Source of the DNA: Candidatus Latescibacterota bacterium
Lineage (GTDB): Bacteria > Latescibacterota > UBA2968 > UBA8231
DNA: 64,000 nt
Direction of reading: 5' to 3'
Assembly (NCBI GenBank): GCA_965206595.1
Contig: OZ242214.1
Location: 4,704,001-4,768,000, forward strand
Part shown: positions 35,578 through 54,779 of the stretch, one piece after another
How the letters are laid out: every line of letters begins with the position of its first letter
Numbering within the stretch: the first letter of the stretch is position 1
The notes under the pieces: generated by a model
Database searches by the model: none
What the model was told of the DNA's origin: nothing
Seen by the model: the letters and a program-made list of their open reading frames with translations, nothing else
Translations under genes and position numbers: made by a program

Positions 35578-35639
35578 GACTATAGCCCGAGCCTTTCTTC
35601 CATCCACATAGTGGTCGGTCAATGTAGCATTGCGGAGTA

Positions 35640-35812
35640 AAGATCTGTACACCTGAGGCCGCCCTCCAACGCAAGGAGCAAAGGAACCGTAAGGCGAAGA
35701 CGGTCGACGGGGAAGCGGAGGCCCGTCTCGTAGCTCTGGGCAGTAGCCCGCCGCCGGAGGGGAGGAAGTGCTGGACCCTCAGATTGTTAGTAGAGCGCCT
35801 CCTCACATTGCA
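35640..35812 (+). mobile_element. IS630-family transposase HTH fragment
   Basis: Translates as ...KTVDGEAEARLVALGSSPPPEGRKCWTLRLLVERL. Confidence 0.6.
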
Positions 35813-35813
35813 G

Positions 35814-35987
35814 GATACCCTGCGCCAGCAACAGCGCAACGTCCTCGACTATCTCAGGATGGCCTGCACCGCCGCCGTGCGTCAACAACCAGCGCCCTCG
35901 CTGCTGCCTTCAACCCATTCCGCCATTCGCTAATATCAGCCCGCGACCATTCCGTCCCCGGCCCCATCAGCAGGGAACTGAACGGTT
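35814..35987 (+). mobile_element. IS66 right-end remnant
   Basis: Highly similar to the reverse complement of 41357-41530; ends GAACTGAACGGTT. Confidence 0.85.
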
Positions 35988-36670: not shown

Positions 36671-36930
36671 CTTCCTCCCACGAGGATTGGATTGCATCCA
36701 TTCCCTCCCCTGCGAGGGACCGAGGGCATCCGTCATCCGGAGGATGGTCCCTGGGGCCTGCTGCCCCAGGCCGTTGAAATGCAGGGCTGACCAGTGATAA
36801 CGGCGAAGAATCCAGCCCCCTAACCGGCCTCGGAAATAGAACCCCACCCGTAAAAAGTCCTGCCTGCGACGCGATCTGTCGCAGCTGTAGGCCATAATCC
36901 TGGGATACATCCAATGACCCAGGATTCCAA

Positions 36931-38271
36931 ATGGCCGGCAATCAGCACATTCCGCCCCAGGCGATAGAAATAGAGCAGGCCGTATTGGGGGCGATGATGC
37001 TAGACCCTGGCGCCATCGACCGCGCCAGCGCAACCCTCGATCCGGACTGTTTTTTCCACGTCCCGCACAAATGGATTTACGCCGCAATAATCGACCTCCA
37101 CGAGCGCGGGGTGGCGATCGATCAGCTCACCTTGTCCGAGGAGCTCAAGCTCCGCGATCAGTTCCATGAGGCTGGCGGATCCGTCTACCTGGCCAGGCTG
37201 GCCATCGAGTTCGCCTCCGCGGCAAACATTGACGACCACGCGCGGATCATCCTCGACAAGGCACTCAGGCGCAAGGTGATCGAAACTGCCGGCGACATCA
37301 TCGAGCAGGCCAACGAAGGCAGCAGGGAGTTGGATGTTCTGCTTGAAAGCGCCGCGCAAGGTCTTGACAGGATCCGCCAAAACCAAATCGTCGATGGGCT
37401 TGAGCCGCTTGCTTCGCAAATCGGCGACGCCGTAAAACAGATTGAGCAATCCTGCAGCAGGGTAGGCTCCCTCTCCGGGATCGGGACGGGGTTCATCGAC
37501 CTCGATGATATAACCTGCGGCTTACAAAAAGGAGACCTTATCCTGCTTGCGGCTGCCCCGGGCGCCGGCAAAACGTCTCTGGCCTTTGCCCTGGCGCGCA
37601 ACGCCGCGGTAGAAACGGGGGTCGGGGTTGCAATCTTCAGCCCGAGAACTTCCAGAATGGAGCTGGCCCGGCGACTGCTCAGCGCGGAGGCGCAGGTGGA
37701 TCTGCACAAGCTTTGCAGCGGCCGGCTCCGCGACGACCAATTGGTTCACCTGAGGAGCGCCGCAGAACGTCTGGCCGGAATACCTGTCTATATAGACGAT
37801 ACCCCCCGAATTTCAATAACCGAAATCCGGACCAAGGCGCGCCGGTTGCATCGGGAGCACGGGATCGGCCTGATTTTCGTTAACTCTCTGGAAATGATGG
37901 GTCGACAGACGAAGGCCTACACCTGCAAGCAGGAAATCTCCCGGGGCCTCAAGGGCCTTGCCCAGGAGCTGAACGTACCAGTACTCGCCCTGTCGGAACT
38001 GGAATGCACCCAGGAAAGGCCGAGGTTGGAAGACTTGTGGGAGTCGGGAAATCTCGATCAGGAAGCCGACATGGTGATGTTCATCTACCACCCGGATATG
38101 CACGGCATCGAAGACCACGAAGACACCAGCTTCGAAGGCACTGCCGAAATCATCATCGCCAAACAGCGCAACGGCCCGCTTGGCTCGGTGAAGCTGCAAT
38201 GGAACGCCGAGAGCGCGACTTTCAGGAATTTGGCGCCGGAGTGGCGGACTGAGACCGAGGAAGAATATTAA
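36931..38271 (+). CDS. dnaB: DnaB-like helicase paralogue with degenerate catalytic motifs
   Basis: PPQAIEIEQAVLGAMM N-domain, TGFIDLD, EQDAD-like DQEAD, IIAKQRNGP; motifs changed to AAAPGAGKT, FSPRTS, VNSLEM, LSEL, DLWESG. Confidence 0.85.
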   Translation: MAGNQHIPPQAIEIEQAVLGAMMLDPGAIDRASATLDPDCFFHVPHKWIYAAIIDLHERGVAIDQLTLSEELKLRDQFHEAGGSVYLARLAIEFASAANIDDHARIILDKALRRKVIETAGDIIEQANEGSRELDVLLESAAQGLDRIRQNQIVDGLEPLASQIGDAVKQIEQSCSRVGSLSGIGTGFIDLDDITCGLQKGDLILLAAAPGAGKTSLAFALARNAAVETGVGVAIFSPRTSRMELARRLLSAEAQVDLHKLCSGRLRDDQLVHLRSAAERLAGIPVYIDDTPRISITEIRTKARRLHREHGIGLIFVNSLEMMGRQTKAYTCKQEISRGLKGLAQELNVPVLALSELECTQERPRLEDLWESGNLDQEADMVMFIYHPDMHGIEDHEDTSFEGTAEIIIAKQRNGPLGSVKLQWNAESATFRNLAPEWRTETEEEY

Positions 38272-38509
38272 CTTCAGTCCGGCCGACACCGGCGAAGCCG
38301 CTGGCTTGGTGCTTTCAGGATACCTTTCCCACATAGCTCGCTTCCTCCCCTTGGCCTGACCCTCCCGTAGTCCGGGAACTTCGGGGCGAATGCCTCCCTG
38401 CATAACCCCCCCAAAAGTCGCCCACCCGCGACATGATCCGTCGCACCCCCTGGAAAACAGGTTCGCTTTTTGCTGTACGAGAGCGAACCCATTCTCCCGG
38501 AGGAACGAC

Positions 38510-39271
38510 ATGCCTACCCAAAGAACCCGCGACCCGCGCACCCTCGACGACCACGGTCTTATTGGGGGCGGGACAATGACGGCGGCCGAGCAACCCCTTC
38601 TCCGGGTTCAGGGCTACAAGTCCAACCCCGAGTTTCTGGACGCGATGTTGAAAGAGGCAATTCTGCAGCTGGAGTGCGGCGGGCTGCGGCGCCTCGTGCG
38701 CCAGCGGAGCCGGCGGCGCTGGTGCGCCGGCCTGTGGATCGACCCGGAGGGGGCCATCCCGACGGGAAAGCTGCGGCAGCGGCTCGATATCTCGGAGCGT
38801 GAGTCGCTGCGCCTCGGAGGGGTTTCCGAGGCTCGACTGGAGGCGAGCGATCCGCAGGTGGTCCCGTTCCTCGACCTCGTCAGGCGTTGCCGCCTGACCC
38901 CCTTCGACCGGCAGGTGCTCTTGCTGCTGTTCTTCAGGGCGGTGTCGCCTGAGTTCCTTGACCACTACAAAGAGCTGGAATACGAACAGTTTGAACCGGG
39001 AACCCGGGGCCAAGGGGGTGGGCAGGAGGTGCGCATCCGCAGCCTGCTGGAGATACTCTGTTCGAGCAGAACCGGTGTGACCATACAGGCAATTAGCCGG
39101 TTCAGGGCCGACGCCCCCCTGATGGACTGCCACCTGCTGCGCATGGGCAGCGTCAACGAGCAGCGACCCTCGGTTCTCGACGTCGAGGTGCATCTACGCC
39201 GGCGGGTCCTGCCCTGGATCGGCGGGGAAACCCTCAGCTTCCCGGGGGACGATCCTTGTCCAGAGGAATAA
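38510..39271 (+). CDS. hypothetical protein resembling the N-terminal winged-helix region of AAA ATPases
   Basis: LVRRCRLTPFDRQVLLL...LLEILC...RFRADAPLMDCHLL...LRRRVLPWIGG; AGGA SD. Confidence 0.55.
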   Translation: MPTQRTRDPRTLDDHGLIGGGTMTAAEQPLLRVQGYKSNPEFLDAMLKEAILQLECGGLRRLVRQRSRRRWCAGLWIDPEGAIPTGKLRQRLDISERESLRLGGVSEARLEASDPQVVPFLDLVRRCRLTPFDRQVLLLLFFRAVSPEFLDHYKELEYEQFEPGTRGQGGGQEVRIRSLLEILCSSRTGVTIQAISRFRADAPLMDCHLLRMGSVNEQRPSVLDVEVHLRRRVLPWIGGETLSFPGDDPCPEE

Positions 39272-39369
39272 CCGGCTCGAGGACTCAGGTTACGAGGCGG
39301 CTGACAAACGAATCGATTTCGTAAGCGGAGGGGATTCTGGGATAGGGGGACATCGCGGCCGCCGGTCCC

Positions 39370-41354
39370 GAGTACCTTCGGGTCCTGCAGATGGCCGAGA
39401 ATCTCCGCTTTTCGTCGAACCACTGCGAAATCCCCCGGGGTGAGGTTGGTCAGGGTTTCGACTTCAGCCGGAGCCTCGGACTCGAAGTAGTTACGAAACC
39501 CCGCCATGGACTGACTTGGGGTGAGATAGTCCAGGGCGATCTTGAAAGTGAATCGCCGCAGGGTTGCCGGGTCTAGGGTTTCCCCGAAGTTGGTTGTACA
39601 CGCAAACGGCAGGGGATGGCTCTCCATCCAGGTCAGCATTTCGTTGACCTGGCTGACCTCCCAGGAGCGCACGGCGCCGCGGCGGTCGGCGAGCAGGGAG
39701 TCGGCCTCGTCGAAGACGAGGATGGAGCCTTCGGCGCGCGCCTCTGCGAAGGCGTCGGCAATAAGCCGTTCGGTTTGGCCGACCCACATAGACATCAGGT
39801 CGGAGGCCCGCTTCTGGGTTACCTGAAGGCCGAGGCGCTCGGCCAGATAGCGGACGAAGGCGCTCTTTCCGGTGCCGGGCGGACCTTGCAGACAGAGGGA
39901 GAAATGCTTTCCCCCGGTCTTTTCCAAGCGTTCCGTGAATCCCACCGGGTCGACGTCTGCCCGGATCAGGGCGGGATCGAATCTCTCCGGTGCCCCCTGC
40001 TGCATCGGCTTCTCTCCTGAAATCACCCGGGACAGGTTTTGCACGCCAAGGCGTACTGCAGCGAGGTCTTCACCACAAAGGCTCGCCGCGGCGATGGCCC
40101 CGGAAGCAACCCCGGGGGCCACGTCGAACTCCTTTGCAAGGGATTGGCCATCTTCCTCCGTCGCTTCGATGCCGTGGCGCGCCAGCTCCCGGCTCCATAT
40201 TCGTGCCCGGGTCCGGCGCGTGGGCCGGCGCAGCTCCAAGGCGCACGTCATACGGCGCAGGACGGTGGGACAGGTCTCCCTGGCGGAGTTCGATGTCCAG
40301 AGCGTCGGCACCGGTGTGCGTTCGAGCAGCCGGTTGAGAAACACCTTGGAGCCGCCGGAGCGGAGCGGGGAAAAGCCGTGTGAAGAGAAGGGTATCCAGC
40401 CAGAACCCGGGTCCGAGAGCAGGTCCTCCATCTCGTCGAAGAGCAGCATCGACCCGCCGCCCGGAGCCAGCAAATTCTGGGCGACCTGAAGCTCCTGGAG
40501 CCGTTCCCCCCGACGGGGTTCGTCGCCGCTATCGTCCGCTTCGCCCACACTGTAGAGGTTCGCCTGCAGCCGGGCGGCCAGGGTCTTGCAGAACTCCGTC
40601 TTTCCGGTGCCCGGCGGTCCATACACCAGGATGTTAACCCCCTTGGCGCGGGAACTCAGGGCGCCCTTGAGCACCTTTTCGATATGGTCGCGCTGTTCCG
40701 CGACATGGTCGAAGTCTTCCCACTCCAGCTCCCCCGGGGGCGCCGTATCGAGCAGCGGGCGGCGCATGTCGAGTTCGCCCTCGTCCGTGACGGTGACCAG
40801 CCGGTTCAGCCGCTTGACGATTTCGATGTCCCCGTCGTCGTCTATGGACACCAACCCGGACCTAAGGAGAGGAGCATCGGTCGCCAATCGGGCGCGGAGA
40901 ACACCGCCCGACACGCCGAGGACCCGGGGAAGCAAGGGGTTCGTAACATTGAATAAACTGGGTCGGATATGGCGAGAGGTGGTGAATTCGAAAACAGACT
41001 CGATCAGCGATTCGAAAATCGGCTGGGTGCGACTCCACATCAGGATTTCAAGGATGGCGACATCATCCGAAGCGAAGTCCATCGCCTTTCCGAGCTGCCT
41101 CAGCCGCTTCGCCGTGAGGTCTTCCCAGGCACCCTCGCCGGAAGACAACGTCGAGGACCTGTCCTCAAGGGTCTTCAGGAGACCCTGCCAATCCTTCTTT
41201 GAAAGGTCTTTCCCGAGGTACTTCCCCGCCCGGCGCTCGTACTGTTCCAACTCTTCCGATTCATCATTTTCGCATTCCAGGCCCAGCACCTTCCGGTTTT
41301 CGGCGACCCACACGGCCAGGTCCCTTGCTTCCGGACTGGCGCGGTGAATTCGCG
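39370..41354 (-). pseudogene. tandem (double) AAA+ ATPase, N-terminus cut by IS66, natural C-terminus apparently lost
   Basis: Two P-loops (YGPPGTGKT, QGPPGTGKS), Walker B LLFDEMED and LVFDEADS, LDPATLRRF; ORF starts inside IS66 and runs on into the convergent gene. Confidence 0.8.
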
Positions 41355-42975
41355 GTAACCGTTCAGTTCCCCTGGCAGGTTGGGGGCGGGGGCGGAATGG
41401 TAGCAGAATATTAGCGAATGGCGGAGTGGGTTGAAGGCAGCAGCGAGGGCGCCGGCTGCTGAGACACGGCCGCGTCACAGGCCATCCTGAGATAGTCGAG
41501 GACGTTGCGCTGCTGCTGGCGCAGGGTATCGCGTACCGTGAGCAGGCGCTCTACGAAACGGCTGCCTTCGGCACTGTGGGTACCGAAGCTGGTGTGACGC
41601 CACAACACGCCATGGCGAAGGGCTCGTTCGGCTTCGTTGTTGGTCGGCTCGACGCCGGGCCGGCGTGCGCAGGTCCACAGGGCCGGCCCGAGGTCGAGGA
41701 GATTGGCGCAGGTGGCCGCCGTCTTGGCGTCGGCGAACTGCTGCCCATAGCACAAATGAAAACGAAAGCGCAGACACAAATCGTCGATATAGTCCTGGAA
41801 GCGGGCGCGGGACAGGGTACCGTCGCGGACTTGATGCCACCAGGTAAACAGCTGCTCGCTGCGGTCCAACAGGTGTTGACCGACGCGCCCGGCCTCTCCG
41901 CCCCGGGCCACGAACTCCTCGAAGGCGCGCCGCAGATGAGCCCAGCACACGTGCCGGCGTCGTAGCGGCAGATGCGCGTAGGCCGAATAGCGATCGGAGC
42001 CGACCACCGCCCGGTTGTCCGCACCCAGCACCTCATCGACCCCGTCCCGTCCCCGGCTTGGGCGAATGGCGAACACGGTGACGCCGGCCGTCACCGCGGT
42101 CCACAACCAGGCCTTGGCGCGGCGCTGGCGCCAGCCGGTCTCGTCGACGTTGACGAGGCCCTGTCGGCGAACGAAGGCGCGCGCCTCCTCGACCGCACCC
42201 GCCAGGGCCCGCGGCCACTTCCCGTTCCAGTCGGCTGACCGTACCCAGCGACACCTCGAGGCCGAAGGCGTCGGACAACAACGCCCGGATGTTGCGCTTG
42301 CTCAGCCGGTAGGCCCCGGCCAGCAGGCCGACCCAGGCTTGCACGCTGGGACCGAAGGTGTGGCGCGACACGCCCTCGGGCCAACCGGCTGCGGTCAGGC
42401 GGTCGCAGTGACCGCAGCGCAGGGTGTGCAACTGATACTCGATGACCTCGGCCCGCAGCGGCGGGATGACGACTTCCTGGTGACGCTGCGGATGAGGATC
42501 GTCTCCCGTCAACGGGTGCCCGCATCCGTGGCACGTACTCGGCTTGACCGGGATCCGTTCGTCCACCTGCTCCACCGATACCCACGAGCGGCCGTGTCCT
42601 TCGTGCCCGGGCTGTCCGCCCGGCGAGCGCCCCGAGGATCGGCGTCGGGAGGTGTCGGTGCGCGGCGAGGAGGAAGCGCCCGATTGCGACGAGGCGGCCC
42701 GGGCACCGCGGCGGGAGCGCCCCTTGCGGCGGGCCAATTCCCGCTCCAGCTCCCCGATGCGCGCCGTCTGTTGTTCCACGATCTGCTCAAGCTGGACAAT
42801 GCGCTGGCGCAGGTCGCCTTCGGAAATCGTACTCTCAGGAGGTCTCTTCATGGGGTCGCCGTATCCAGGGAAATCTGCAACACACAACCGATCCCGAAGA
42901 TACCGACGAACCCGAAAACCCGCTTAGGTATTTCTTTATATGCTCAAACTACTGCAGGGGGGACTGAACGGTTAC
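41355..42975 (-). mobile_element. IS66-family element (single TnpC type), transposase frameshifted
   Basis: Terminal IRs GTAACCGTTCAG at 41355 and CTGAACGGTTAC ending 42975; PGGQPGHEG, CHGCG, SDRYSAY, CWAHLRR, PTNNEAERALR; flanks do not match (no TSD). Confidence 0.92.
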
Positions 42976-43017
42976 CTTTTCGGAAAGCTCCAGCTCTAAT
43001 TTTTGCCGCTTGGTCAT
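42976..43017 (-). pseudogene. first 14 codons of a gene truncated by IS66, possibly the major capsid protein
   Basis: ATG overlaps the HNH stop (ATGA) after GGAG; MTKRQKLELELSEK, then the IS66 IR. Confidence 0.35.
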
Positions 43018-43331
43018 CGGTCTTCTCCGGTTGTGTTGGTGCATGTAGGTGAGGGGGTTTCGCTATGACTGGAGAGCCGCTCAACGAACCTTAACCACTC
43101 CAGCCGCGCGGGGGATAGCTTTGCCGTTTTCTCCGCTGCGAAATGACAGCGCCGGCAAAGCGTTCTCAGATTGCGCAAATCGTAGGGCGCGCCGCCAGTG
43201 CGCGGGGGGTCCGTATGGTGTACTTCCAGCCGCCAGCGGGCGCCGCATTCTGTACATTTTTCCCCGTCCCGCTGTAGGACTTTGGAGCGGGTTAGCTCCC
43301 ATTGCTTGCCCTTCAAACTGTGCTTACTCAT
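43014..43331 (-). CDS. phage-type HNH endonuclease
   Basis: W..TRSKVLQRDGEKCTECG...LEVHH...NLRTLCRRCH. Confidence 0.9.
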   Translation of the reverse strand: MSKHSLKGKQWELTRSKVLQRDGEKCTECGARWRLEVHHTDPPRTGGAPYDLRNLRTLCRRCHFAAEKTAKLSPARLEWLRFVERLSSHSETPSPTCTNTTGEDR

Positions 43332-43342
43332 ACCAGTGCACT

Positions 43343-44512
43343 AGTGTCATGTCGTGTAATTAACTGTACAAACAATTGAAAGTGCCGTAGGTTTCCCTTA
43401 TCCCCCTTCTGAAAGGAGAGACCTATGGTGACGGGGCGTCCATTAACGCCGTTAGAGCTGAGTCCGTCGGACCGGGAACGACTGGAATCGATGGCCAAAT
43501 CACGAAGTCTTCCCCACGGATTGGTGCGGCGAGCCGAGATGGTGCTGCTGGCCGCCGATGGCTGGCCCAATGAAGCGGTCGCTTCCGCGGTGGGTGTGAC
43601 GCGAGCTACGGTGGGCAAATGGCGCCGGCGTTTTCTCGACAACGGACTCAATGGCTTGTATGATGAACTACGTTCAGGGGCGCCGCGATCGATCACGGAC
43701 GAGCAGGTAGCCGAGGTGGTATACAAGACCCTGAAGACCAAGCCCAAAGACGAAACACAGTGGTCGGTGCGCTCCATGGGCGAAGAAACCGGCCTGACCA
43801 AGGACGCGGTTCATCGCATTTGGCGCACGTATGGTTTGCAGCCCCATCGACACAAGCGCTTCAAGCTTTCCACCGATCCTTTCTTTGTCGACAAAGTACG
43901 GGATATCGTCGGCTTGTACCTGAATCCCCCCGAGCACGCCCTGGTGCTGTGCGTGGACGAGAAGAGCCAGATCCAGGCGTTGGAACGAAGTCAGCCCATG
44001 CTGCCCCTGGGACTGGGATACGTGGAAGGGATTACGCACGACTACAAGCGGCACGGCACCACCACCCTGTTTGCCGCCCTGGACATCGCCACCGGGGAAG
44101 TGATGACCCAGTGCAAGCCCCGTCATCGTCACCAGGAGTTCCTCCAGTTCCTGCGCCACATCGAGGCCAACGTGCCCGCTGACCTCGATATTCATCTCGT
44201 CGTCGACAACTACGCCACGCATAAGCATGCCAAGGTCAAGCGATGGCTGGCACGGCGTCCCCGATTTCACCTTCACTACACTCCCACGTATGCTTCGTGG
44301 CTCAATCAGGTGGAGATCTGGTTCAATATCCTCACCCGCCAGGCGGTTCGGCGCGATTCGTTCCGCAAGGTGTCGGAGCTCATCGAGCGAATCGAACGCT
44401 ACACGGCCAAATGGAACGCCAACGCACACCCTTTCGTCTGGACGGCTACGGCGGATTCCATCCTCGCCAAAATCAAGAGACTTTGTGAACGAATCTCTGC
44501 GACAGGACACTA
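43343..44512 (+). mobile_element. IS630-family element with intact transposase (43425..44513)
   Basis: Ends CTAGTGTCATGTCG and CGACAGGACACTAG at a CTAG/TA target; [30 protein letters not shown]. Confidence 0.95.
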
Positions 44513-45851
44513 GCTCGACTTCGACGGGGAGCGGGAGCGGGTAGGGTCTCGCCTAGGCCAGCGGCAATAGTCGCGGCTGCAAGGGCGTCTATCCTGCCGC
44601 TGTTGTTTTGTTTGCATAATGCGGGGTTTCCGCCGGGGTCACGGCGGATCTTGCTATCCTTTACGGCGCTGGCCAGTAGCCGGGCGCCAGTAGCGAGGGA
44701 CAAGCCGCCCGCGATCGCCAGCCGTTCAAAACTTCGCACGTCGGCGCTACCGTCAGCCGTCTTACTGGCACCGGTCCCCCGCCATACCGGGCGCCAGCGG
44801 AGGCCCGCGTCTTTTATCGCCTGCTCCGCTTCTTTCTGCCGGTAGCGGTCGGCTCCAACCTCCGCCACGTCGACCCCGTGCAGCTCGCGGGAAACCCGCT
44901 TAAAAAACTGGGGTATGTCTGAAACGAGGTCGCCACATTGCCACAACTCGCCTTGTGCGTGAAGGACCGTATAGAGCGGTCCTACGCCGTCGCTTTTCCC
45001 CCGGTCCGCCAGCGGGGGAAAAGCCGGGACAGCCGCGTATACCTCAAGGCGCCCGGTAGCTGGCCATAGAGCCGCCGCCGCCGTCATCGCGCGGCTCCCG
45101 CCAAGGTCCAACCCCACCACGCAGCGGCCACGGCGCGGGGCAACCTCGCGCGCCATGCACCGTTGCATCTCGACAGCGGAGATTATAGGATCGGTCCCGG
45201 CTCCTATCGGTGCGTTAAGCTCCAAACGTCGAAAATCCGCTTCGTCGCCGGGGGTTTGTGCGGCTGAAGCTGCGAGCTTGCGGAGCTTTTTCAGGCTCTT
45301 AACCCCGTACGAAACTGCGGGGTTTGCGGCTAGCAACGCCGCCTCGTCATCGAGACTGCAATCGACGGGCGCCGCATGTACGGATACCTCCCCCCGCTCG
45401 ATCATCTCGGCGAACATTGGCCCGATATCTCTTATTGAAATGGCTAGCAATTTTCCATCTTTTGCCGTCGTACTTGTGCGGAAACTGTTATAGAGCGGGC
45501 GCTTTCTTTCAGGTAGTTGTCCCGCCTCATCGAGAATCGCTAGATCGGAACCAACGGCGTGACCGGAGGATTTTTCAGAGTTCCAGAATGTCGCCCTTGC
45601 GTCAAAATCCTTCGCCTCGATCCAACCGGGATAAGGCGCTTTCCGCTCGCTTATGGGCAACCCGCTAGCCTCCGCGATTGCTACAATTTGCTGTTTCAGT
45701 TCGACGGATAGCTGGCCAGTCAACGAAACCGCATTTGCCCGCCAGCCCGGGCGCCGTAGCGGTCCGCAAAGGTGCGCTAGTATCAAGGCCGCAACCGTCG
45801 CGGTTTTCCCGTTCTTTCTCCCGGTACTTAAGGCTGATTCGCTTGTTTCAG

Positions 45852-48572
45852 CCCTTGTTATTCATGGAATTTCAGTAAAAGGAGCTGTACTGGGGTGCCT
45901 CCCATGCTTAGGTTTCAGAGGGAAACACAAGGCAGTATCACCCTTTGACCCAACCACACAGGAGGACACCCAATGGGTGAATTACCGTCCCCCACCCCGT
46001 CCCCGCAAGCCGGGCCGATTCAGCCGTCTTTCAACCGCTCCATTCACATTGAAGCTCGCCCCACTCACCTCAGCGGCGACCCCGGTTCGCTGGTGTTGCG
46101 GCAACTGCTCGAACACAGCCAGGTCCTGGATTGGGTGGATGCCCACTTCGAGGATCGCCGTAGCCCGGACCAGATCACGCACCCGCTGTCGGAACTTTTG
46201 CGCACGCAGATCGTGCTGATGGCGCAGGGCTTGCCCCACGCCGACGACGCCGACGCCGACGCGCTGCGGCAGGATCCGATCCTGCGTCTGGCGGTCAGCG
46301 ATCGCAAAGGGCAGTCGCCGTTGCGCCCAGCCGACGAAGGCCGGCCGCAGGGACTGGCCAGTCAGCCGACGCTGTCGCTGATCGGGCAAGCCTCCAGCGC
46401 CTACAACCGCGCGCTGTTGGAGGAAGCGGTGCTGCGCAGCGCCTGGTCCCGGTGCCAGTTGCTGGAACGACGGCTGCGCTACGAGGAGTTGGCCGTCGAC
46501 ATGGATGCCTTGCCGATGCCGGTGCACGGACACCCGCAGGGGGTGGAGTACAACGGCTACTTCCACGCCTCGGGGTTCCATCCTCTGATCATCGGCTCGG
46601 CGCAGACGGGCGACTTCTTCGGCGCCGTGTTGCGGCCGGGCAACGTGCACGCGCATGAGGGCGCCGAAGCGGCTATCCTGGAGCGCCTGGACTGGATTCT
46701 AATCGCACTTGGCCGGCCGCGTCCTCCTGCGCTTCGACGCGGCCTCGGTGAGCGGGCCCTTCCTGAGCCGGCTGGAAGCGCGGGACAACACCTGAACCTA
46801 TCTCAAAATAGGCAAACTTAAACTTGTTTTCGAAATGACAGTGATGTACCATTGGTGTATGGTCAATCTGACCGACATGCAATGGCAACGAATCCGGCAT
46901 CACTTTCCTGAAGAACTTCGTCCCAAGAGCCATCCGGGGTCGCAAACCGGTTTGCACCCGCGATGTTTTTGAAGCCGTTCTTTGGATTCTAAACACCGGG
47001 GCTCAATGGCCTATGTTGCCGCAGTGCTATCCGAACTACAAAACCGTGCATCGCCGTTTTCAAAACGGGTGTCGTCAAGGGGTTTTACGCGAAGTTCTCA
47101 TGGACCTGGCCCAGACCCTTCACGAGCAAGGGGGCCTGGACGAATCGGAGGCTTTCATCGATGGCATGTTCTCGGCGGCCAAGGGGGGAGGTGCCGATAT
47201 CGGCCACACCAAGCGAGGTAAGGGGGTGCGGGTCATGGGGATCGTGGACGGCAATGGGCTTCCCTTGTCGGTGAGCACGCATGCAGCGAACCATCATGAA
47301 GTGACGCTGGTTCAGTTGACCTTTGACTTTTACCTGATCGAAGACCAACCTGACAACTTGATCGGCGATAAAGCGTACGACAGCGATTCGTTGGATGAAG
47401 AGCTTAAGAAAGACGGGATCGAGATGATCGCCCCGCATCGCCAGAATCGGACCAAGAAAAAAACTCAGGACGGACGGCGATTGCGGCGTTATGTGCGGCG
47501 TTGGATGGTTGAGAGATTCTTTGCTTGGCTTCAATGGCAGCGTCGAGTGATCACTCGCTGGGAATTGTATCCGGAGAATTTTCTTGGCTTCGTCCAACTT
47601 GCATCCATTTTGATTTTACTTAAACAATTTCAATTTTGAGATAGGTTCCTCGTACGGGTCGCGCATCAAGAAGAATGCGCGCCTGGAGGACGTGGCTCGT
47701 CCCTGGGTGGAAGCCTATCAGCAGGAGCTGGCGCAGCACCCGGAGCGGTTGCGCGAAGAGGGTTTTCGCTGTCGCGAGCTGCGCTATCAAGCCAAGTCCT
47801 GGGCGCAGCCCCGACGGGTGGTATTGGTATGGGTCCCCTCCGAGACGGAGGAGTTGCCCATCGCCCGCCACTTTTTCCTGATCACCGACCAAAGTCCCCA
47901 GACGATGGGCGCCCGCGACGTGGTCGCCTTCTACCGTCAGCGCGGCCTCTTCGAGCGCATGCTCGGAGAGCTGAGCTCCACCCTTCAGCCCCAGCTCTCC
48001 TCGACCACCCGTCGCAAACAGCACTACCGCGGTCGTCCACCGGGTCAGCGCACCCCGTCCCGGGATGCCTTCGCCGCCAACCAGGCGATCCTGACCCTGA
48101 ACCTGCTGGCCTACAACCTGCTGCACCTGGGCCGCCAGGCCGCCGAACGCGCCGAGGCCCGACGCGGGCGGCCCCGCACATACGGACGCTCGACGACGGC
48201 CCTGAGCCTGGACAGCTTTCGACGGCGCTACCTGCGCCTGCCGTCCCGCGTCACCTTGCACGGACGCAGGGTGGGCGTCATCCTGACCCAAGGGATGGCG
48301 GCTCCCTGGGACCGTCTGTGGAGATTTCTGGCCACGCTCAGACCCGTGGATATGGGGATGGCGTAACCCCGGGCCGGGTCGGTTGGGGTAATCGGCTCGC
48401 AAGCGAAGTGTCTCCACGGAGGCGCGTACAATTTCAACAAGGTCGGTAGAGATAGGGGGACGGCTCTACCCAAAAAGGCAACTATAGAAGGGAGGCAGGC
48501 CTTGGAGGCTATGCAGTGGGGTCTCGGAAGCGCCTATACCCGCTTAGGCGCTGGTTGTATGAATAACAAGGG
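45852..48572 (+). mobile_element. IS1380-family element interrupted by IS5
   Basis: IRs CCCTTGTTATTCAT / ATGAATAACAAGGG; 5-bp TSD TTCAG (45847-45851 and 48573-48577); LASQPTLS, YNGYF..GFHPL, LRPGN, YRQRG..E. Confidence 0.92.
46794..47648 (+). mobile_element. IS5-family element nested in IS1380
   Basis: IRs GAACCTATCTCAAAAT / ATTTTGAGATAGGTTC; 2-bp CT duplication; LTDMQW, FIDG, GDKAYDS, RWMVERFFAW; frameshift near 46940. Confidence 0.92.
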
Positions 48573-48751
48573 TTCAGGGTCCAAAGCCACGGACAACCAA
48601 TCCTGCACAAAAGGGAGAATCCGGAGCGGCTCGCCGGCCAACGGATGCCCCTGCGGTACGACAAGGGTCTTTTCCGCCCAATCCGTAAGCGTAGCCGCTC
48701 GCTCCGCTCCGCTGGCGGTTGCCGGCAAGGGGAATCCCCCGGGGTACCGCG

Positions 48752-48786
48752 GGCGCTGTACGGCGCTGTACGGCGCTGTACGGCGC
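48752..48786. repeat. 10-bp tandem repeat (GGCGCTGTAC)x3.5 in the terminase 5' region
   Basis: Read directly. Confidence 0.95.
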
Positions 48787-48972
48787 GCCTGCGCCGTTGA
48801 GACTCCCGGCAACACTTCCGCCGCTTCTCAGGGTCCTTGTACGGCACTTAGGAAAGCCTCTCAGAGAAACGTGACACCCTCCAGCCGGTGCCGCTGCAAG
48901 GGGTTCGGCCGGGGGGGACAGGGGTCCCCGGGCGGGGGGCAGGGGGCAGGGGGTAGGGTCTGGGGGCGATCA

Positions 48973-49377
48973 TCAAAAGCCAAATTCGCTGATGGGCTCG
49001 ATCAACCCGCGGGCGCGCAGCCTGTCGTACGCCGTTTGCTCTTCAATGTCCAAGCGAATCAGGAGGTTGGCGTAGTCGTCGAAAGCTGCGCGCAACCGCC
49101 CTTCCACGCGCGGAAGTTGCGCGGGGGGATAGCCGTGCACTCTCGCGGATTTTGTCGCGTATGCGCTTTGAATTCCCGGGGTAGTCATACGCAAGTAGAG
49201 CCGCCCTTGCTCGTCGCGTAGGAACTTCCTGCGCTTCCATAGGTTGCGATACAAGGCGCCGCTCCGTCGGTCCCGGCCGTGGTAGGCGCGACGCTGGCGC
49301 CTCGCCACGGTCGCGGCAAGGCTCAATAGGCGCCTTTCCGCGCGGCTGACATCGCGCCGCCGTACGCGTTCAGGCAC
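48973..49377 (-). CDS. basic hypothetical phage protein (possible neck/tail-completion protein)
   Basis: Overlaps the stop of the upstream tail-terminator-like gene; R..SGALYRN motif; same strand as terL. Confidence 0.5.
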   Translation of the reverse strand: MPERVRRRDVSRAERRLLSLAATVARRQRRAYHGRDRRSGALYRNLWKRRKFLRDEQGRLYLRMTTPGIQSAYATKSARVHGYPPAQLPRVEGRLRAAFDDYANLLIRLDIEEQTAYDRLRARGLIEPISEFGF

Positions 49378-49810
49378 TGGCGCCGCTCCGTCTGGAAAAC
49401 TGCACGGCTAGTCGCAACTCCCAGCGGGTGTATTGCACTGCGTCTGCATTTATGCCCGTGCGCCGCAACGCCGCCTCTCCCACCCTTACGGTTCCCCCGC
49501 CAGCAGTTTGTAGGTCCGTCGCCTCAAGGCTGTTGGTGAGGCTGTCAGCCGTCCTTAGCGCCTCGCTTTCGTCGCGGTCGCGGGGTAGGTAAATCCCGAT
49601 CAAGAGATCGGCGTCAACGTCTACCCGGGCGCGCTTGCCTATGCTGGCTTTGGTCGCGTCAACTGGGGAATAAATGGCGCGCAACCATGGCGCCCCCACT
49701 GGCGGGGTGAAGTTCCGATTGCCCCGGGCTACCGGGATAGCCGGGGATAGCTCGCCGGCCAGCCGTTCAACTTCGGCGATTAGGGCAGTATTGACGCTTT
49801 CGTGATTCAT
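49370..49810 (-). CDS. phage tail-terminator-like protein (DUF4128-like)
   Basis: PVARGNRNFTPPVGAPWLR...IGIYLPR...ADSL pattern. Confidence 0.65.
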   Translation of the reverse strand: MNHESVNTALIAEVERLAGELSPAIPVARGNRNFTPPVGAPWLRAIYSPVDATKASIGKRARVDVDADLLIGIYLPRDRDESEALRTADSLTNSLEATDLQTAGGGTVRVGEAALRRTGINADAVQYTRWELRLAVQFSRRSGASA

Positions 49811-49845
49811 TCGGCGGGGGTCCGGGAGTTCGGGGGGATCAAAGG

Positions 49846-49865
49846 TTATCCACAAGTTATCAACA
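49846..49865 (+). promoter_or_regulatory. two tandem DnaA boxes
   Basis: TTATCCACA (49846-49854, perfect) and TTATCAACA (49857-49865, one mismatch), followed by an AT-rich stretch. Confidence 0.65.
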
Positions 49866-50617
49866 GCCGGGGTCAGTGTCAACCCGTAACCCCTTTATTT
49901 ATATGCCTTTATGCTATGTTAGTATAGGAAATAGCAAGGGGTTTCCTTGCGTTGCCTTGCCCCGCCTCGCCACACCTAGCGCCGCCCTACCTAGCCAAGG
50001 GTTCCCCGGCTCGCCTAGCCGCGCCGCTCCCTACGGAGCCTTGCCACGCCCAAACCTTGCCTTGAATCCCCGAAGCTGTACCAGCCTCAAGGGGAAAGCA
50101 GAACATCCATCTAGGTACGAACGGCTGTACTATAGCCTGAACGGTACCCCTAGATCGCTAGGCCTTTTCTAAGTACCTGGTACTCAGTACCCGCGGTACT
50201 ACAACAACCCAACTACTAACAACTCTAGGCCTTGTCGTTTGTCTGATTTCTTAGGAAACGGGCGCAGTAGGCCCTAGAGGCTAGAGGCTATGAAAAAAAC
50301 AGCCTCCAGCCGTAGGGGCCTACTGCGTTGACCCTCGATTTCTTGAGGTATCCGGTATGCAGGACAGCCTTATATCTCAGGGTGACCACAACCCCTTGAG
50401 ACCCCAGCCCGTCAGCTGCCGTTAGGCTCCGGTGCGGATATGCTGGATCCTCTTGTACCGCTTTTCCCTGAATCGACGCCAACAGAGACGCAGACAGATA
50501 TCGTCGGCAGAAATAGAGAGGGGGAAAAACACGTAGGGCCTGGGGAGTCCGAAATCGAATGTACCTTCGGCGGAGGACTAGGGCAAGGACTAAATCGCTG
50601 TCTCACATAGGGTTACA

Positions 50618-51778
50618 CTATGATACTTCTAAGTTTGCCCCCATTGCTTTGGCAACCTCCGCCGCAACCTGTTCCCGAGCCTCTCGAACGGGATTCCCGA
50701 CAAAGCGGATGTAGCGGTCCGCCATCGCTGTTGTCTTATGACCTAGTAGGTCCCGCAGTACATGTACTCCGATTCCCGAAGCTGCGGCCATTGTCATAAT
50801 CGTCCGTCGCAAGTCGTGAATCTTCACCCCTTCGATGCCGGCAAGGGTGCATATATGCTGAAAGTGAAACCGGATGTTGCGATAGGTGGAAGGAACCCCG
50901 CGACGAGCGGAGAATACCCAATCACAACAGCGGGGGAGTTGGCGCAGTACGTCGAGTGCGGGAGCCGGTAAATCGTGTTGGCGCCTTCCGGTTTTCGTCG
51001 CCGGTAACACTAACCTTCCCGACTCGAAGTCGATATGTTCCCACTTCATCGCCAAAATCTCGCCAATCCGCAGCCCGGTAAGTGCGGTTACCCGGATTGC
51101 CGCGACGGCAACCGGGTTTCCCTCGTACTGATTCAGCGCCAAAGCCAGCGCCGCCAGTTCGGACGGCGATAACACGCGGTCGCGCGGTTCCTCCCGCCCT
51201 CGCTCGACACCTCGGGCGGGGTTGGTATGCTGCTCCCGCCATTCCCAATGCTCGAACAAGGAGAAAAGCCGCGAGACCAAGGCGATCAACCTGTTTCTCG
51301 TAACGGTCGGGGTACCGTCAATCGCTCTTTCGACGTGTCGGCGCTGGACCTCGGCAATCTTGCGCTTGCCCAGCTTCGGAGCCAGATAGCACCGCCATTG
51401 CTTGCGATACTCGGATGCGGTTTTCGGGGACATCCGCCCGAGTTTGATACGCTCGGGTACGAACTCATCGAAGAACCGGGACACTCCATCATTGACCGTC
51501 GGCGCTTCCCGTCGCTGCTGCCTTTCGTCCAACGGATCGGCTCCCTCGCGAACACGAACCAGTTGCTCGCCGGCCATCTGGCGGGCGGTCTTCAAGGAGA
51601 CTTCCCCGACTCGGGCCAAAGTCGCCCGGCGTTCGCGACCGCCAGAGCGATAATTGAGGATGAACGCCTTCGTACCACCGGGGGCGATTCTGAGCCCCAA
51701 ACCCTTCAGCTTCTCATCCCACAAAATGCGGGTTTTCGCCTCGGGTTGTGCGTCCCTGATTGCGGCTGCTGTCAGCAT
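50618..51778 (-). CDS. tyrosine integrase with Arm-DNA-binding N-terminal domain
   Basis: LWDEKLKGLGLRIAPGGTKAF; catalytic R (TGLRIGE), HDLRR, LLGH and Y all present. Confidence 0.95.
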   Translation of the reverse strand: MLTAAAIRDAQPEAKTRILWDEKLKGLGLRIAPGGTKAFILNYRSGGRERRATLARVGEVSLKTARQMAGEQLVRVREGADPLDERQQRREAPTVNDGVSRFFDEFVPERIKLGRMSPKTASEYRKQWRCYLAPKLGKRKIAEVQRRHVERAIDGTPTVTRNRLIALVSRLFSLFEHWEWREQHTNPARGVERGREEPRDRVLSPSELAALALALNQYEGNPVAVAAIRVTALTGLRIGEILAMKWEHIDFESGRLVLPATKTGRRQHDLPAPALDVLRQLPRCCDWVFSARRGVPSTYRNIRFHFQHICTLAGIEGVKIHDLRRTIMTMAAASGIGVHVLRDLLGHKTTAMADRYIRFVGNPVREAREQVAAEVAKAMGANLEVS

Positions 51779-51944
51779 GGCTTTTCCCTCCGTGTCAGCA
51801 ATTTGTCAGCAAAATGAACGGTACGGATGGGCGCGGGTCAATGCCAAAGCAATGAGATTTATTCCCCTAACCTGCTATTTATCATAGGCTTATACTATAA
51901 AAGCATGATAAAACGGGGGGTTTTGTGAATGCGGAAAAAAGTGC

Positions 51945-51989
51945 CTCTTAATCAGCGGGTCCGGGGTTCGAGTCCCTGTGGGCGCACCA
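51945..51989 (+). tRNA. 3' half of tRNA-Lys(CTT), an att-site remnant rather than a complete tRNA
   Basis: CTCTTAA anticodon loop, TCAGC, GGGTC, CGGGG-TTCGAGT-CCCTG, TGGGCGC-ACCA; D-arm and 5' acceptor strand absent. Confidence 0.88.
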
Positions 51990-51993
51990 AAAT

Positions 51994-52078
51994 CCAGCCG
52001 CTAACTTTGGCGGTTGGCGTTAACTTTGGCGGTTGGTTGGTTTAACGCGAGTCCCCGAGGAGCGGCTTCTCGGGGGCT
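51994..52078 (+). terminator. hairpins downstream of the tRNA 3' end, including a duplicated TAACTTTGGCGGTTGG
   Basis: CCAGCCGCTAA/TTGGCGGTTGG stem; CCCCGAGGAG/CTTCTCGGGG stem. Confidence 0.5.
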
Positions 52079-52639
52079 TGTTGTATTTGACGCTTTTTCA
52101 ATCACTTGCACCTCCCCCACACATCCTCCCCGATACTCCGTTTTGAAGCGAGCTTTCCGTCCCGGCGGCATCCATGACAAGTCCTCCCCAGCCTGTCTGC
52201 CTAAGTCGCGGCAGACCGCCGCCAAGGAGGAATGGATCCCCACAGAGCCAACGCCGACGAACGAGGCGAGCCTATGAGAACGGCCTCCAGCGGTAAACGA
52301 ATGACCGGGAGAAGCCTGGACAAGGTCGTCAGATGTGATCCCGAAACTTCTGCACTCGCTGCGTGCCGCGCTGATTGAGAAGCTCTACCCGCGATTGGAA
52401 CTACCTGGGGCAAGGTGGCAGCACCCCCCTCACCTCGGTGAACGGCTTCACTGATCTGGAGTATGTCGCCGCGTTTGGGCCGGGCCAATCGCAGGTGGCG
52501 GATTCGACCTTGGTGAACCTGGCCTTGATCCAGCTGCTTCGGCAGGTGGCCGAAGCGCCCGAGCGGAAGACGGGTTTACCGCTGTTTGATGACTGGAGTC
52601 CTCAAACAGAAGACGCCTGTGTGGCCACCTCGGGCGGAC

Positions 52640-53409
52640 GTGGCCACACAGGCGCGCCTGGCCGAGCGGGTGGGTGCAATCCGGATGGCGCCGATGAAGG
52701 TCTCGCTCAGATCGCAGCAGACCCAGCGGATACGAGCCTTCTGGAAGGCGCTCAGCCGGTCCCGGAAGAACGCGTCGATGGTCTCCCGTGCCTTGTCCTT
52801 GCCGACCCGGACGACACAGGAACGTTCCAGGTCATAGACCAGGGTGGCGTATTTGTGGCACCTGGCGTAGGAGGCCTCGTCGATGCCGAGGGGTCTTCAG
52901 CCCGCGGATGCGGTGCCCAGTACGCCGATGCGCGATGAGCCGATGCAACTGGCAGTACTTCAGCAGCAGATATTCGAAGCGGTAGCTGACCCGGGCCGAG
53001 GGAGCCGCCCAGGGCACCTTCTCGACGTGCCGGCCGTGGGTCGGACAGCGGATCTCTCGAGGGGTGTGGTGCAACCAGAGGGTACGGCCGCAAACGCGGA
53101 CATCGCGCCAGCGGCGGGGCTCCATGACCCGTACGATCTTGCTCCGGCGCCCACACTGAGGACACCGGCACCCGTTCTTGTGGGGCTTCACCGAGACCAC
53201 GACGGCCGCTTCCTGCCCGCATCCTTCGAACCACACGTCGACAGCGCGAAATCCCTTGAATTGGAACAGCTTGGAGAGGAACTTCATAGCGGTCATAGGT
53301 CGCCTTCCCTTTCCTGGGGAGTGCTTGATGGGGATACACCAAGCACAGGGAACGACCTATGGCCTTGTCATGTACTCAGGTTTCGCCGTTGAAAAACCCG
53401 GATAGAACC
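52640..53409 (-). mobile_element. degenerate ISL3-family element
   Basis: End GGTTCTATCC at 53409; CRCPQCG, RRWRD, IRCPTHG, GIDEASY...KYATLVYDL; frameshifted and truncated. Confidence 0.85.
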
Positions 53410-53548
53410 AGAAAAAACACCGTGCCGTAAAGTCGCTGACCGGCGACAGGAATTGTTTTTCAACGGACGAGGAGCATCGAGAGCAGTAGACCCCGACAGG
53501 TCCGGTCCGGGCATCTGCTCCTTGCCTTGAAGGAGATCTGAAAACAGG

Positions 53549-54737
53549 ATGTACGGAATTCCATCGATACTGGTTCCGCTACTTGCCCTGACCCTCGCAC
53601 GTTGTAGCGGAGAGGATCCGGCTGCGCCCAGCCAGTCGGAAACCGTCAGGATCGGTTTTCTCGCCGCGGGGGACCGCGTGACCTATGCGGACGCCGCAGG
53701 GATAGCCGTGGCCGAGGCAAACGAGCGCGCGGGCGTGCTCGGCATGCCGGTCGAGCTGCTTTCCCGCATCGAAATAGAGGAAGCCTCCGTCTCGGTCGAG
53801 ACCGCCGAAAGGATGATTCTCGAGGACGACGTCGTCGCTCTCGTCGGGCCCAACCGCTCTTCCCATGCCATTGCATGCAGTCGGAGAACTCGCGCAACGG
53901 CACCGCCTGCCGATGGTGACCACATCGGCGACCAACCCGGAGGTGACAAAGGCGGGGGATTTGGTCTTCATGGCGGCTTTCACCGACATGTTCCAGGGGC
54001 AAGTGATGGCGCAGTTCGCCAGGGAAGAGCTCGGCCTGGCCAGGGTTGCGATCCTGACGCAAAGCGGCGAGGTCTATACCGAGGGGATTTCCGAATTCTT
54101 CCGGTCTGTTTTCATGGCCTCAGGCGGCGAGGTAGTCGCCGACGAGTTCTACGACAGCGGAGAGACGGATTTTTCCGGGCAGCTGGGACGCATTGCCGAG
54201 GCGCAGCCAGAGGCGCTCTTCATATCCGGGCTTGCGCAGGAAATCGCCCTGGCGACGCAGCAGGCGAGAGCTAGGTCTTTACAAGACGCAGCAGGCGAAC
54301 CGGCGCTTTTCCTCGGAGCCGATTCGTGGGACAACCCGAATCTGCTGGGCAACGAGGCCGCCGAGCTCGAAGGCAGCTTCTACACTACCCACTTTTCGCC
54401 CGATACCGATGAACCGGGTGCGCGCCGGTTCGTCGACACATATCAATCGCTGTACGGGAGCACTCCCAGCGGCGACGCGGTGAGCTACGATGCGGTCCGG
54501 CTGCTTCTCGAAGCCATCGAGCGGGCAGGGAGCCTGGAGCCGGAGGCAGTCCGGGGTCAACTTGCGGCGACCGAGAACTATGTCGGCGCCACCCGTATCG
54601 CCCGTTACGACGAAAACAGGCACCCGGTCAAAAGCGCGGTCATCATGATCATCAAGGACGGGATCGGAAGATTCCACACGCAGATCGACCCTGGCCAGCG
54701 AGCACAGGCCGGAGTGCCGGCGGTTCTGCCGCACTGA
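53549..54737 (+). pseudogene. branched-chain amino acid ABC substrate-binding (LivJ-like) lipoprotein, frameshifted
   Basis: ALVGPNRSSHA continues in another frame as VGELAQ..PMVTTSATNP; frameshift near 53875; no permease genes adjacent. Confidence 0.8.
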
Positions 54738-54779
54738 AAAGCCCAGTCGATCGATTGAGAATCTGTTTTCAGCAGATTC

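Follow-up and report, generated by a model that had tools for sequence, protein, structure and literature searches.

A decayed, probably satellite-like, capsid-forming element at a tRNA-Lys gene of a Candidatus Latescibacterota genome

Introduction

What kind of mobile element leaves an integrase gene, a large terminase subunit gene (terL), and only the first codons of a capsid gene beside part of a tRNA gene? The question is raised by a locus, here called element A, at positions 42976..51989 of a 64,000-nt window, the whole stretch of DNA analyzed from a Candidatus Latescibacterota bacterium (G000; GenBank assembly GCA_965206595.1, contig OZ242214.1, positions 4,704,001 to 4,768,000). Unless called genome or contig positions, coordinates refer to this window. 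A preliminary description of the DNA had proposed a compact element of about 5 kb, interrupted by insertion sequences (ISs), and had suggested an undescribed class of minimal capsid-forming satellite or something resembling a gene transfer agent (GTA). Our analysis indicates that a small integrative, capsid-forming, tail-less satellite-like element, about 10-11 kb in size when intact, probably left a dead copy here, of which the window holds the integrase-proximal half. Because elements of this kind carry their own head and packaging genes and no tail genes, they most likely spread by borrowing the tails of another phage. Gene content, att sites, a consistent size of 10-11 kb, and the absence of tail genes are the parts of this model that were observed directly.

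Gene content of element A

The genes of element A lie on the minus strand and are read from 51989 leftwards. At the integrase end, the 3' 45 nt of tRNA-Lys(CTT) (51945..51989, plus strand) form an att repeat that is identical to the 3' end of the intact gene at 42 of 45 nt and is present once in the window; host DNA starts after 51989. The notion of a compact element integrated at tRNA-Lys held up, with the correction that the window contains only this 3' half, ARAGORN having returned 0 whole tRNA genes for the 64 kb. Next stands an apparently intact gene for a 386-aa tyrosine integrase (50618..51778, minus strand; PF00589, 1.2e-21; Arm-DNA-bind_3, 4.8e-16; phrog_1, 1.6e-53), 30% identical to the integrase of an IMG/VR relative (L054). 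A 735-bp spacer with no convincing open reading frame (ORF) (49883..50617, minus strand) separates it from a 170-aa tail-terminator-like neck gene (49370..49882, minus strand; PF13554, 2.4e-10; phrog_179 "tail terminator," 2.7e-14), followed by a basic, all-helical orphan ORF of 134 aa that matches no family and occupies the place expected for a small terminase subunit gene (terS) (48973..49377, minus strand).

The remaining genes encode DNA packaging and head functions. The N-terminal segment of terL, with a GTG start at 48847 (MPYKDPEKRRK...; 48573..48847, minus strand), was recognized by three-frame translation and comparison with the terL of G104, a genome of the same genus, and the body of the gene (44514..45851, minus strand; phrog_9, 1.5e-38; PF20441, 1.4e-6) covers the ATPase Walker A region and the nuclease domain. 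The terL product is 39-47% identical to those of a second element in this genome (copy B) and of elements in G104, G145, and G167. It is followed by a gene for a 105-aa HNH endonuclease (43014..43331, minus strand; PF01844, 3.2e-9; phrog_589, 7.2e-15) and by the first 14 codons of the major capsid protein gene (MTKRQKLELELSEK; 42976..43017, minus strand), which is truncated by an IS66-family copy and was identified from its N-terminal match and its position after HNH. Although the capsid call had been made on only these 14 residues, it was borne out. The N terminus of the capsid protein shares 10 of the 14 residues in G104 and 7 in copy B, and 12 representative capsid proteins have a matching consensus that starts MTxLQKLxLRxSE; the position after HNH is also the one that the capsid gene has in relatives.

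Once the ISs are taken out (IS1380, itself interrupted by IS5, at its TTCAG duplication and IS630 at its CTAG target), 42976..51989 comes to 5,120 bp net, in agreement with the 5 kb first estimated. The order att, integrase, non-coding gap, tail-terminator-like gene, basic ORF, terL, HNH, and capsid start was likewise confirmed, and removal of IS630 leaves the terL/HNH and HNH/capsid-start gene pairs each overlapping by ATGA, as had been proposed. We also recognized no repressor, AlpA, primase, or terS in element A with Pfam and PHROGs. The G+C content of the elements (47-62%) and their third-codon-position G+C content (GC3) are far below those of the host, whose DNA has 66-71% G+C.

Within the spacer, a hairpin with 27-nt arms lies just after the integrase gene (50263-50327) and four degenerate 23-nt repeats lie at 49944-50050; Rfam, run on 48500-52300, gave two sub-threshold matches to miRNA families on the hairpin, which we considered noise. 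These structures may act as a terminator or a regulatory site, or have a cos or ori role. The basic ORF had no Pfam or PHROG family and no usable Atlas match, and a homologue search in 5.8 billion proteins retrieved only itself. Its single-sequence AlphaFold2 model (pLDDT 69.4) has four helices and gave 0 matches at E<=0.001 against the PDB with Foldseek; that it represents a terS is a guess from its position.

The other half of the element and its tRNA-Lys site

Position 42976, previously taken as a limit of the element, is an IS66 junction without target duplication and not an end, and the supposed 5-kb minimal element is only one half, the other half lying 425 kb away. The sole intact tRNA-Lys(CTT) gene of the genome is found at c[4326196-4326271], 430 kb from the window and on the opposite strand. 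Between it and an IS66 copy at genome 4320480-4322100 lies the other half (L003), inverted relative to the window half in the assembly. It contains a connector-like ORF truncated at its end by an IS630-family fragment, an ORF resembling head-completion genes, and a portal gene with one frameshift (43-53% identity to the copy B portal), all pointing towards the tRNA, as well as about 1.3 kb of small ORFs beside the tRNA. The connector-like and head-completion-like ORFs were named from their position and a weak similarity.

The two IS66 copies, both without target duplication, lie inverted to each other, and inverting the DNA between them once yields the same gene order as in the relatives, bounded by direct tRNA repeats. 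The original order was accordingly tRNA-Lys(CTT), about 1.3 kb of small ORFs, then in reverse orientation the portal, head-completion-like, and connector genes, the now missing protease and capsid genes, HNH, terL, the basic ORF, the tail-terminator gene, the integrase gene, and the duplicated 3' half of the tRNA. G103 and G104, both of the same genus, have the site empty: the sequences that here lie upstream of the tRNA and to the right of 51989 adjoin there around one tRNA-Lys. The element inserted at the 3' end of tRNA-Lys(CTT); IS66, IS1380 (later followed by IS5), and IS630 entered, and recombination at IS66 deleted the protease gene and the capsid gene beyond its 14 codons. The missing stretch, from capsid codon 14 to the connector, measures about 2.1 kb in relatives (the rest of the capsid gene plus the protease gene), so the att ends now span about 8.5 kb net, to which about 2.1 kb of lost head operon must be added. 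Copy B proteins used as tblastn queries revealed no further capsid or protease copy of this type in the genome, and the sole PF05065 match in the genome is the copy B capsid gene.

In the host DNA beyond the att repeat (52700-54740), an ISL3-family transposase fragment (52832-53296) is accompanied by a periplasmic-binding-protein gene whose two parts lie in different frames (53549-54274 and 53865-54737); a homologue of the latter gene adjoins tRNA-Lys in G103 and G104.

Relatives in Latescibacterota and Acidobacteriota

The second element of the genome, copy B (genome about 1036000-1046000; L001 16000-20000 and L002 1-6000), is apparently intact, with all genes open and a G+C content of 47-60% against 66-71% around it. 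It encodes, in order, Neck1 (phrog_26), terL (39% identical to that of element A), HNH, capsid (PF05065), an S78 protease, a 102-aa connector-like ORF, a head-completion protein (PF05521), a portal (PF04860), and a convergent integrase; no direct repeats of at least 12 nt were found flanking it. The G104 element has the same order in about 10.8 kb of low GC3, with an integrase. It is also the order of G138, over about 7 kb flanked by housekeeping genes, and of G167, where terL is interrupted by an IS630 copy and no HNH gene was found. HNH adjoins terL in all the other relatives examined. PF05065, PF04586, and PF04860 were all detected in copy B, G104, G145, G138, and G167. Gene sets of copy B, G104, G138, G167, and element A comprise 9-12 genes, and insertion sites vary between genomes.

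A different form was seen in G145, where two 22-kb contigs each hold about 2.1 tandem copies of a 10.4-10.5-kb unit, in two variants 94-97% alike, and a third contig of 8.3 kb also belongs to the set (L015, L016, and L030, contigs C12, C9, and C6). One repeat differs from its neighbor by an 81-bp indel in the terL N terminus. The unit has no integrase; it encodes a GH108 endolysin with PG_binding_3, a gp10-like ORF, and an 870-aa ORF with a connector-like N terminus (L015 5773-8385), for which the best Atlas leads (0.89, below the tool's trust level) were LamG/ConA-like viral domains. The tandem contigs may represent an extrachromosomal or concatemeric form. An 855-aa ORF with three Cadherin-like domains was found inside the head module of the IMG/VR contig L020 (1829-4396), and such large variable ORFs of L020 and L015 may be head fibers, decoration proteins, or adhesins.

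Of 168 genomes searched across the phylum, 5 had terL matches and 6 matched the capsid profile, G000 counted, all of them belonging to one family. A pattern scan of genome contigs with a terL piece gave 162 pattern matches, of which 0 were confirmed, and profile searches of genome contigs made use of a portal alignment. Outside the phylum, a contig of Vicinamibacteraceae (Acidobacteriota) carries an integrase, two ORFs, terL, HNH, one ORF, capsid, protease, connector, and portal. G138 (L011, L013, L060, and L063) contains further copies or fragments of the module, among them a terL carrying 2 TGA stops and a capsid gene interrupted by 3 internal stops; decay is a common fate of these elements.

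The capsid family in metagenomes

A profile of five capsid proteins, searched against 1.84 billion sequences, matched 4,360 cluster representatives at E<=0.001, 2,671 at E<=1e-10, and 1,359 at E<=1e-30, the clusters being defined at 50% identity in metagenomes. An IMG/VR scan with 12 capsid representatives led from 37 pattern matches to 22 confirmed loci on contigs of 4.5-23.7 kb. HNH, capsid, and protease are colinear on one strand in 22/22 of these loci. terL precedes HNH in 21/22, and in the remaining one (L035) terL and HNH are inverted onto the other strand. A portal gene lies downstream in 16/22, with no portal match within the fetched part of the other 6. Isolated phages gave no match at the level searched: of 50,697 GenBank phage records, 0 were hit at E<=1e-5 by tblastn with the copy B capsid protein and the G145 portal. 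In the PDB, the best E value of a profile search was 0.069 for the capsid and 6.6e-5, over 80 residues, for the portal.

One of the IMG/VR contigs (L043, 158-3845) has lambda-type head genes (Phage_portal_2, a protease/capsid_4 fusion, and a cement protein) and an integrase directly upstream of the satellite-like element. These may belong to a neighboring prophage or to a candidate helper.

Tail, regulatory, and replication genes

Searches with Pfam and PHROGs identified no tail tube, sheath, tape-measure, baseplate, or fiber family in any element or in flanks of 5-10 kb, and of the 138 ORFs kept after filtering at 10 of the 22 IMG/VR loci, none matched such a family in PHROGs at E<=1e-5. The genome G000 lacks the PF10145 tape measure (0 genome matches) and has no HK97-type capsid gene besides that of copy B. 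What the elements do encode are proteins of the neck, namely head closure Hc1 (L041, L047, and L053), Neck1 (copy B, L034, and L035), head completion (copy B and L053), and the tail terminator of element A. The tail-terminator-like gene of A and the GH108 endolysin of G145 are present despite the absence of other tail families.

Integrases were found in element A, copy B, G104, L033, L034, L035, L044, and L054, and none lies within the elements of G145, G138, and G167. Outside the head module, the Latescibacterota copies have only small ORFs that could not be annotated, and an all-against-all BLASTP of accessory ORFs recovered nothing common to the elements beyond integrases and IS fragments. 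The more distant relatives carry additional functions: AlpA (L044), the excisionase/regulator phrog_66 (L035 and L044), HTH_17 (L046), Prim-Pol/PriCT_2 with AAA_25 (L054 and L055), AAA_25 primase/helicase-like proteins (L041, L042, L043, L046, and L047), and a replication-initiator-like protein (L034). No member has a terS family, the "terS" PHROG rows being secondary matches of HNH proteins, and a basic MPYKD/KRR-rich N-terminal extension of terL occurs in A, G104, G145, L020, and L034.

The single genomic paralogue of the tail-terminator-like gene of element A (39% over 76 aa, genome 6838559-6838777) stands alone, its ORF (genome 6838416-6838853) lying in a low-GC3 patch with no prophage around it. 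This locus at genome 6.838 Mb was considered as a resident helper and rejected, the paralogue being isolated and PF10145 giving 0 matches.

Proposed life cycle and competing explanations

How intact members work can be proposed from their gene content. The capsid protein, with a scaffold-like N-terminal coiled coil that is conserved from the first residues, would assemble with the S78 protease and the portal into a small head sized for about 10.5 kb of DNA. terL and the HNH nuclease would cut and package the DNA of the element itself in the manner of HK97 cos phages, with the basic extension at the N terminus of terL perhaps taking the part of terS. Connector, head-completion, and Neck1 or tail-terminator proteins made by the element would finish the neck, on which tails of a co-infecting helper phage could dock, and in the next host the integrase would reinsert the DNA, in the case of element A at tRNA-Lys(CTT). 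Since distant relatives add AlpA and a primase/helicase, the clade appears to work like phage-inducible chromosomal islands of the capsid-forming kind (cf-PICIs).

Several observations count against this interpretation. No helper phage is known, and no particle, excision, or packaging has been seen. Neither a regulator nor a replication gene nor terS was detected with Pfam or PHROGs in A, B, G104, G145, G138, or G167. Reads cover the unique parts of element A to the same depth as its flank (about 23 versus 25 for X1); a dead copy should look like this, and the figure gives no hint of activity. A single inversion predicts that the flanks of the two IS66 copies pair, which they do not, and therefore at least one further event, a deletion, is needed besides the inversion; a scan of 64 genomic matches to the IS66 end motif found none that ends in the sequence required by a simple insertion or a one-step inversion. 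Contigs from short reads enter IS copies for only about 25-30 nt and cannot bridge the 1.6-kb IS66, so the assembly is the sole witness to the 425-kb inversion. Finally, the G145 unit, with its endolysin, its 870-aa connector-like ORF, and no integrase, may be something more autonomous, its contigs coming from a metagenome bin in which host and circularity are presumed.

The last point leads to an explanation that we consider unlikely, in which the elements are very small autonomous viruses or phage-plasmid-like replicons whose unannotated ORFs form a minimal tail or delivery device, with no helper. It would accommodate the separate tandem contigs of G145 in two variants and their endolysin, and the LamG/ConA-like leads for the 870-aa ORF and the Cadherin-like domains of L020 would fit it as well. 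The Atlas scores of those leads, however, fall under the trust threshold of the tool itself; copy B, G104, G138, G167, and element A have no ORFs of this size, and their 9-12 genes leave no room for a tail. In addition, several members encode Neck1, head-closure, or tail-terminator proteins, which join long tails in known phages.

A second possibility is that element A is the deletion remnant of an ordinary 30-50-kb HK97-like temperate prophage from which IS-mediated deletions took the tail, lysis, replication, and immunity modules, its compact form being a by-product of that decay. The heavy decay of the locus (four IS insertions, loss of capsid and protease genes, frameshifts in terL and portal), its IS66 junctions without target duplications, its tail-terminator gene, and the internal stops in the G138 copies are all compatible with such a history. 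Given the stretch enclosed by the att ends, though, a further 20-40 kb could have been accommodated only if it had lain exactly at the capsid/protease site. Independent relatives occupy 7-11 kb between host genes or form 10.5-kb repeat units, and all 22 IMG/VR contigs are at most 23.7 kb with no tail gene shown. The preliminary description had allowed that intact homologues might turn out to be 30-50-kb prophages; they are units of about 10-11 kb instead, and by the size and content of its relatives the remnant explanation is already largely refuted and quite improbable. Least plausible by far is a domesticated, GTA-like head module retained by the host, a suggestion that a head-only gene set in a bacterial chromosome and a genome without recognizable tail genes or PF10145 might invite, and that is unfit given an integrase and att repeats, G+C and GC3 far below those of the host, varied insertion sites, presence in only 6 of 168 phylum genomes, free decay by ISs and frameshifts, relatives with AlpA and primase, and no syntenic, vertically inherited, host-like copies under purifying selection among those seen.

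The capsid-forming satellite named in the preliminary description is thus the suggestion that gained support. Within it, a bolder version can be entertained as a possibility, though a doubtful one: the Latescibacterota and Acidobacteriota elements would be independently evolved minimal capsid-forming satellites of about 10-11 kb, with the terL extension in place of terS and without recognizable replication or regulatory genes, and at least one member, the G145 unit with an endolysin of its own and a large connector-fused, adhesin-like protein, would persist as an extrachromosomal concatemer. If so, the G145 unit would be a step toward a tail-less mini-virus, smaller than any isolated tailed phage.

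Comparison with known satellites and phages

HK97-like phages usually have the order HNH-terS-terL-portal-protease-capsid in a 30-50-kb genome with tail, lysis, and replication modules. The elements described here differ in their order terL-HNH-capsid-protease-connector-portal, their size of about 10 kb, and their lack of tail, lysis, and replication modules. They share with the HK97-like cos phages an HNH gene beside terL, an HK97-fold capsid (PF05065) with an N-terminal coiled coil, an S78 protease, and a PF04860 portal. GTAs have tail genes, no integrase or att sites, and vertical inheritance. None of these traits fits the present elements, whose likeness to GTAs of the RcGTA type consists in a chromosomal cluster of HK97-type head and packaging genes. 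As cited in the accessible text of a report on cf-PICIs, packaging in HK97-like cos phages requires both HNH and terminase (Kala et al. 2014, via bioRxiv 10.1101/2022.09.08.507074).

The closest described counterparts are the cf-PICIs, with which our elements were compared by described gene content and order, as given in the accessible parts of two reports (bioRxiv 10.1101/2022.09.08.507074; PMC10085698). The common features are an integrative island with an integrase, a capsid, protease, portal, terL, HNH, and connectors of its own, the capsid-protease-portal sub-order, the expectation of small, element-sized capsids, and, in the distant relatives of the present clade, AlpA and a primase/helicase. 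In Proteobacterial cf-PICIs, capsid, protease, portal, and connectors come first, followed by hnh-terS-terL (bioRxiv 10.1101/2022.09.08.507074), whereas the present elements place terL-HNH first and connectors before the portal. They have no terS family, and the Latescibacterota copies are without recognizable AlpA, other regulator, or primase-replicase and measure about 10-11 kb, compared to 15.4 kb for the prototype EcCIEDL933 (bioRxiv 10.1101/2022.09.08.507074; PMC10085698). The cfPICI model of SatelliteFinder is described as having 11 core components and as forbidding tails and holins (PMC10085698); by that description it forbids or does not expect genes of the kind of the tail-terminator-like gene of A and the endolysin of G145. 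Descriptions of capsid-forming satellites come mainly from Proteobacteria and Firmicutes, with at least 3 origins reported (bioRxiv 10.1101/2022.09.08.507074; PMC10085698), and in the same accessible parts Latescibacterota and Acidobacteriota are not among the phyla named as hosts. The publications that name both "Latescibacterota" and "prophage" included none about satellites, judged by title and the start of the abstract.

Other small systems show partial similarity. Streptomyces satellites of the Mulch/Flayer system have, in the excerpted account, encapsidation machinery of their own without key replication genes; they were isolated as virions with their helpers, and one satellite of that system is non-integrating with a tail adaptation for attachment to its helper (PMC10690885). 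P4, at 11.6 kb and with T=4 capsids (PMC13669383, in the part available), falls into the same size class; its capsid is made of helper proteins, unlike those of our elements. The same excerpt counts 491 capsid proteins in metagenomic genomes of 5-11.6 kb and brings up the hypothesis that these are satellites; these "twilight-zone" mini HK97 genomes resemble our elements in size, and the ones it stresses are without portal, terminase, and connector, all of which are present here (PMC13669383).

The claim of an undescribed class was therefore too strong, given that distant relatives carry integrase, AlpA/excisionase, and primase/helicase genes beside the same head module. What differs is the gene order, the missing recognizable terS, and the lack of recognizable regulatory and replication genes in the Latescibacterota copies; the phyla are new, and the capsid-forming, PICI-like function is known.

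Insertion sequences and decay of element A

Element A is a dead copy: most of the capsid gene and the protease gene are gone, and terL and portal are frameshifted. IS borders were inferred from other genomic copies and their flanks. An IS1380-family element in terL, with TTCAG on both sides (45852..48572, plus strand; PF13701 on both halves), is itself split by an IS5-family element (46794..47648; PF01609 on the IS5 ORF), and the terL frame, read directly, is unbroken across the IS1380 site. An IS630-family element (43341..44513, plus strand; more than 12 near-identical copies) sits at a CTAG/TA target four codons ahead of the terL stop. Contigs from public runs of two other studies (X4 and X5) connect 43338 with 44508 in a firm joint, so an allele free of IS630 exists and IS630 is the youngest insertion. 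The X1 contig shows the same joint, but with only 24 letters on one side; several other contig joints with sides of 20-29 letters inside repeats were disregarded. None of the 19 runs listed was an RNA run.

Between the GTG start of terL and the stretch leading into the Walker A region the reading frame shifts, at or near three tandem copies of a 10-nt unit in the 5' region of the gene (48750-48782), whereas the G104 terL starts MPYKDKTAERL in a single frame. Contigs of other runs are 10-12 nt shorter somewhere within intervals that take in this repeat (X8 within 48555-48870, X4/X5 within about 48500-50284). The number of 10-nt repeats may be polymorphic, which would shift the terL frame.

The IS66-family copy at 41355..42975 (plus strand) lies outside the element, has no target duplication but unlike 8-bp flanks (AATTCGCG and CTTTTCGG), and marks a break point of the rearrangement. 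Thirteen full-length IS66 copies were found in the genome, 7 with a perfect 8-bp duplication, 3 with a 7-bp duplication offset by one base, and 3 without duplication, including this copy and the one at genome 4320480-4322100. The IS load of the genome is extreme: with self-matches counted, the IS630 stretch gave 55 BLAST high-scoring segment pairs of at least 100 nt, the IS1380/IS5 stretch 86, and the IS66 stretch 27, and many genomic IS copies are 94-100% identical.

Neighboring genes

The IS66 copy is abutted by a separate low-G+C island (31210-41354, 56-64% G+C) that is not part of the satellite. It encodes a 1,314-aa protein with Zn-ribbon, DUF559/REase-like, and DEAD-helicase domains, a winged-helix protein, a DnaB-like helicase (36931-38271), and a double AAA+ ATPase (38965-41352; phrog_10401, 4.9e-66) that has an 84% paralogue at genome 2236920-2238902.

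Implications

These results place the head module in the candidate phylum Latescibacterota and on an Acidobacteriota contig, as part of a family that is large in metagenomes and has no match among the 50,697 GenBank phage records. In this family, nature provides a minimal gene set (about nine genes) for an HK97 head that packages DNA, and element A illustrates how fast such elements get ground down in an IS-rich genome. If the members are satellites, tail-stealing with self-made heads would be far more common than current detectors show, and many of the "viral" contigs of 5-12 kb in IMG/VR would be satellites rather than phage fragments.

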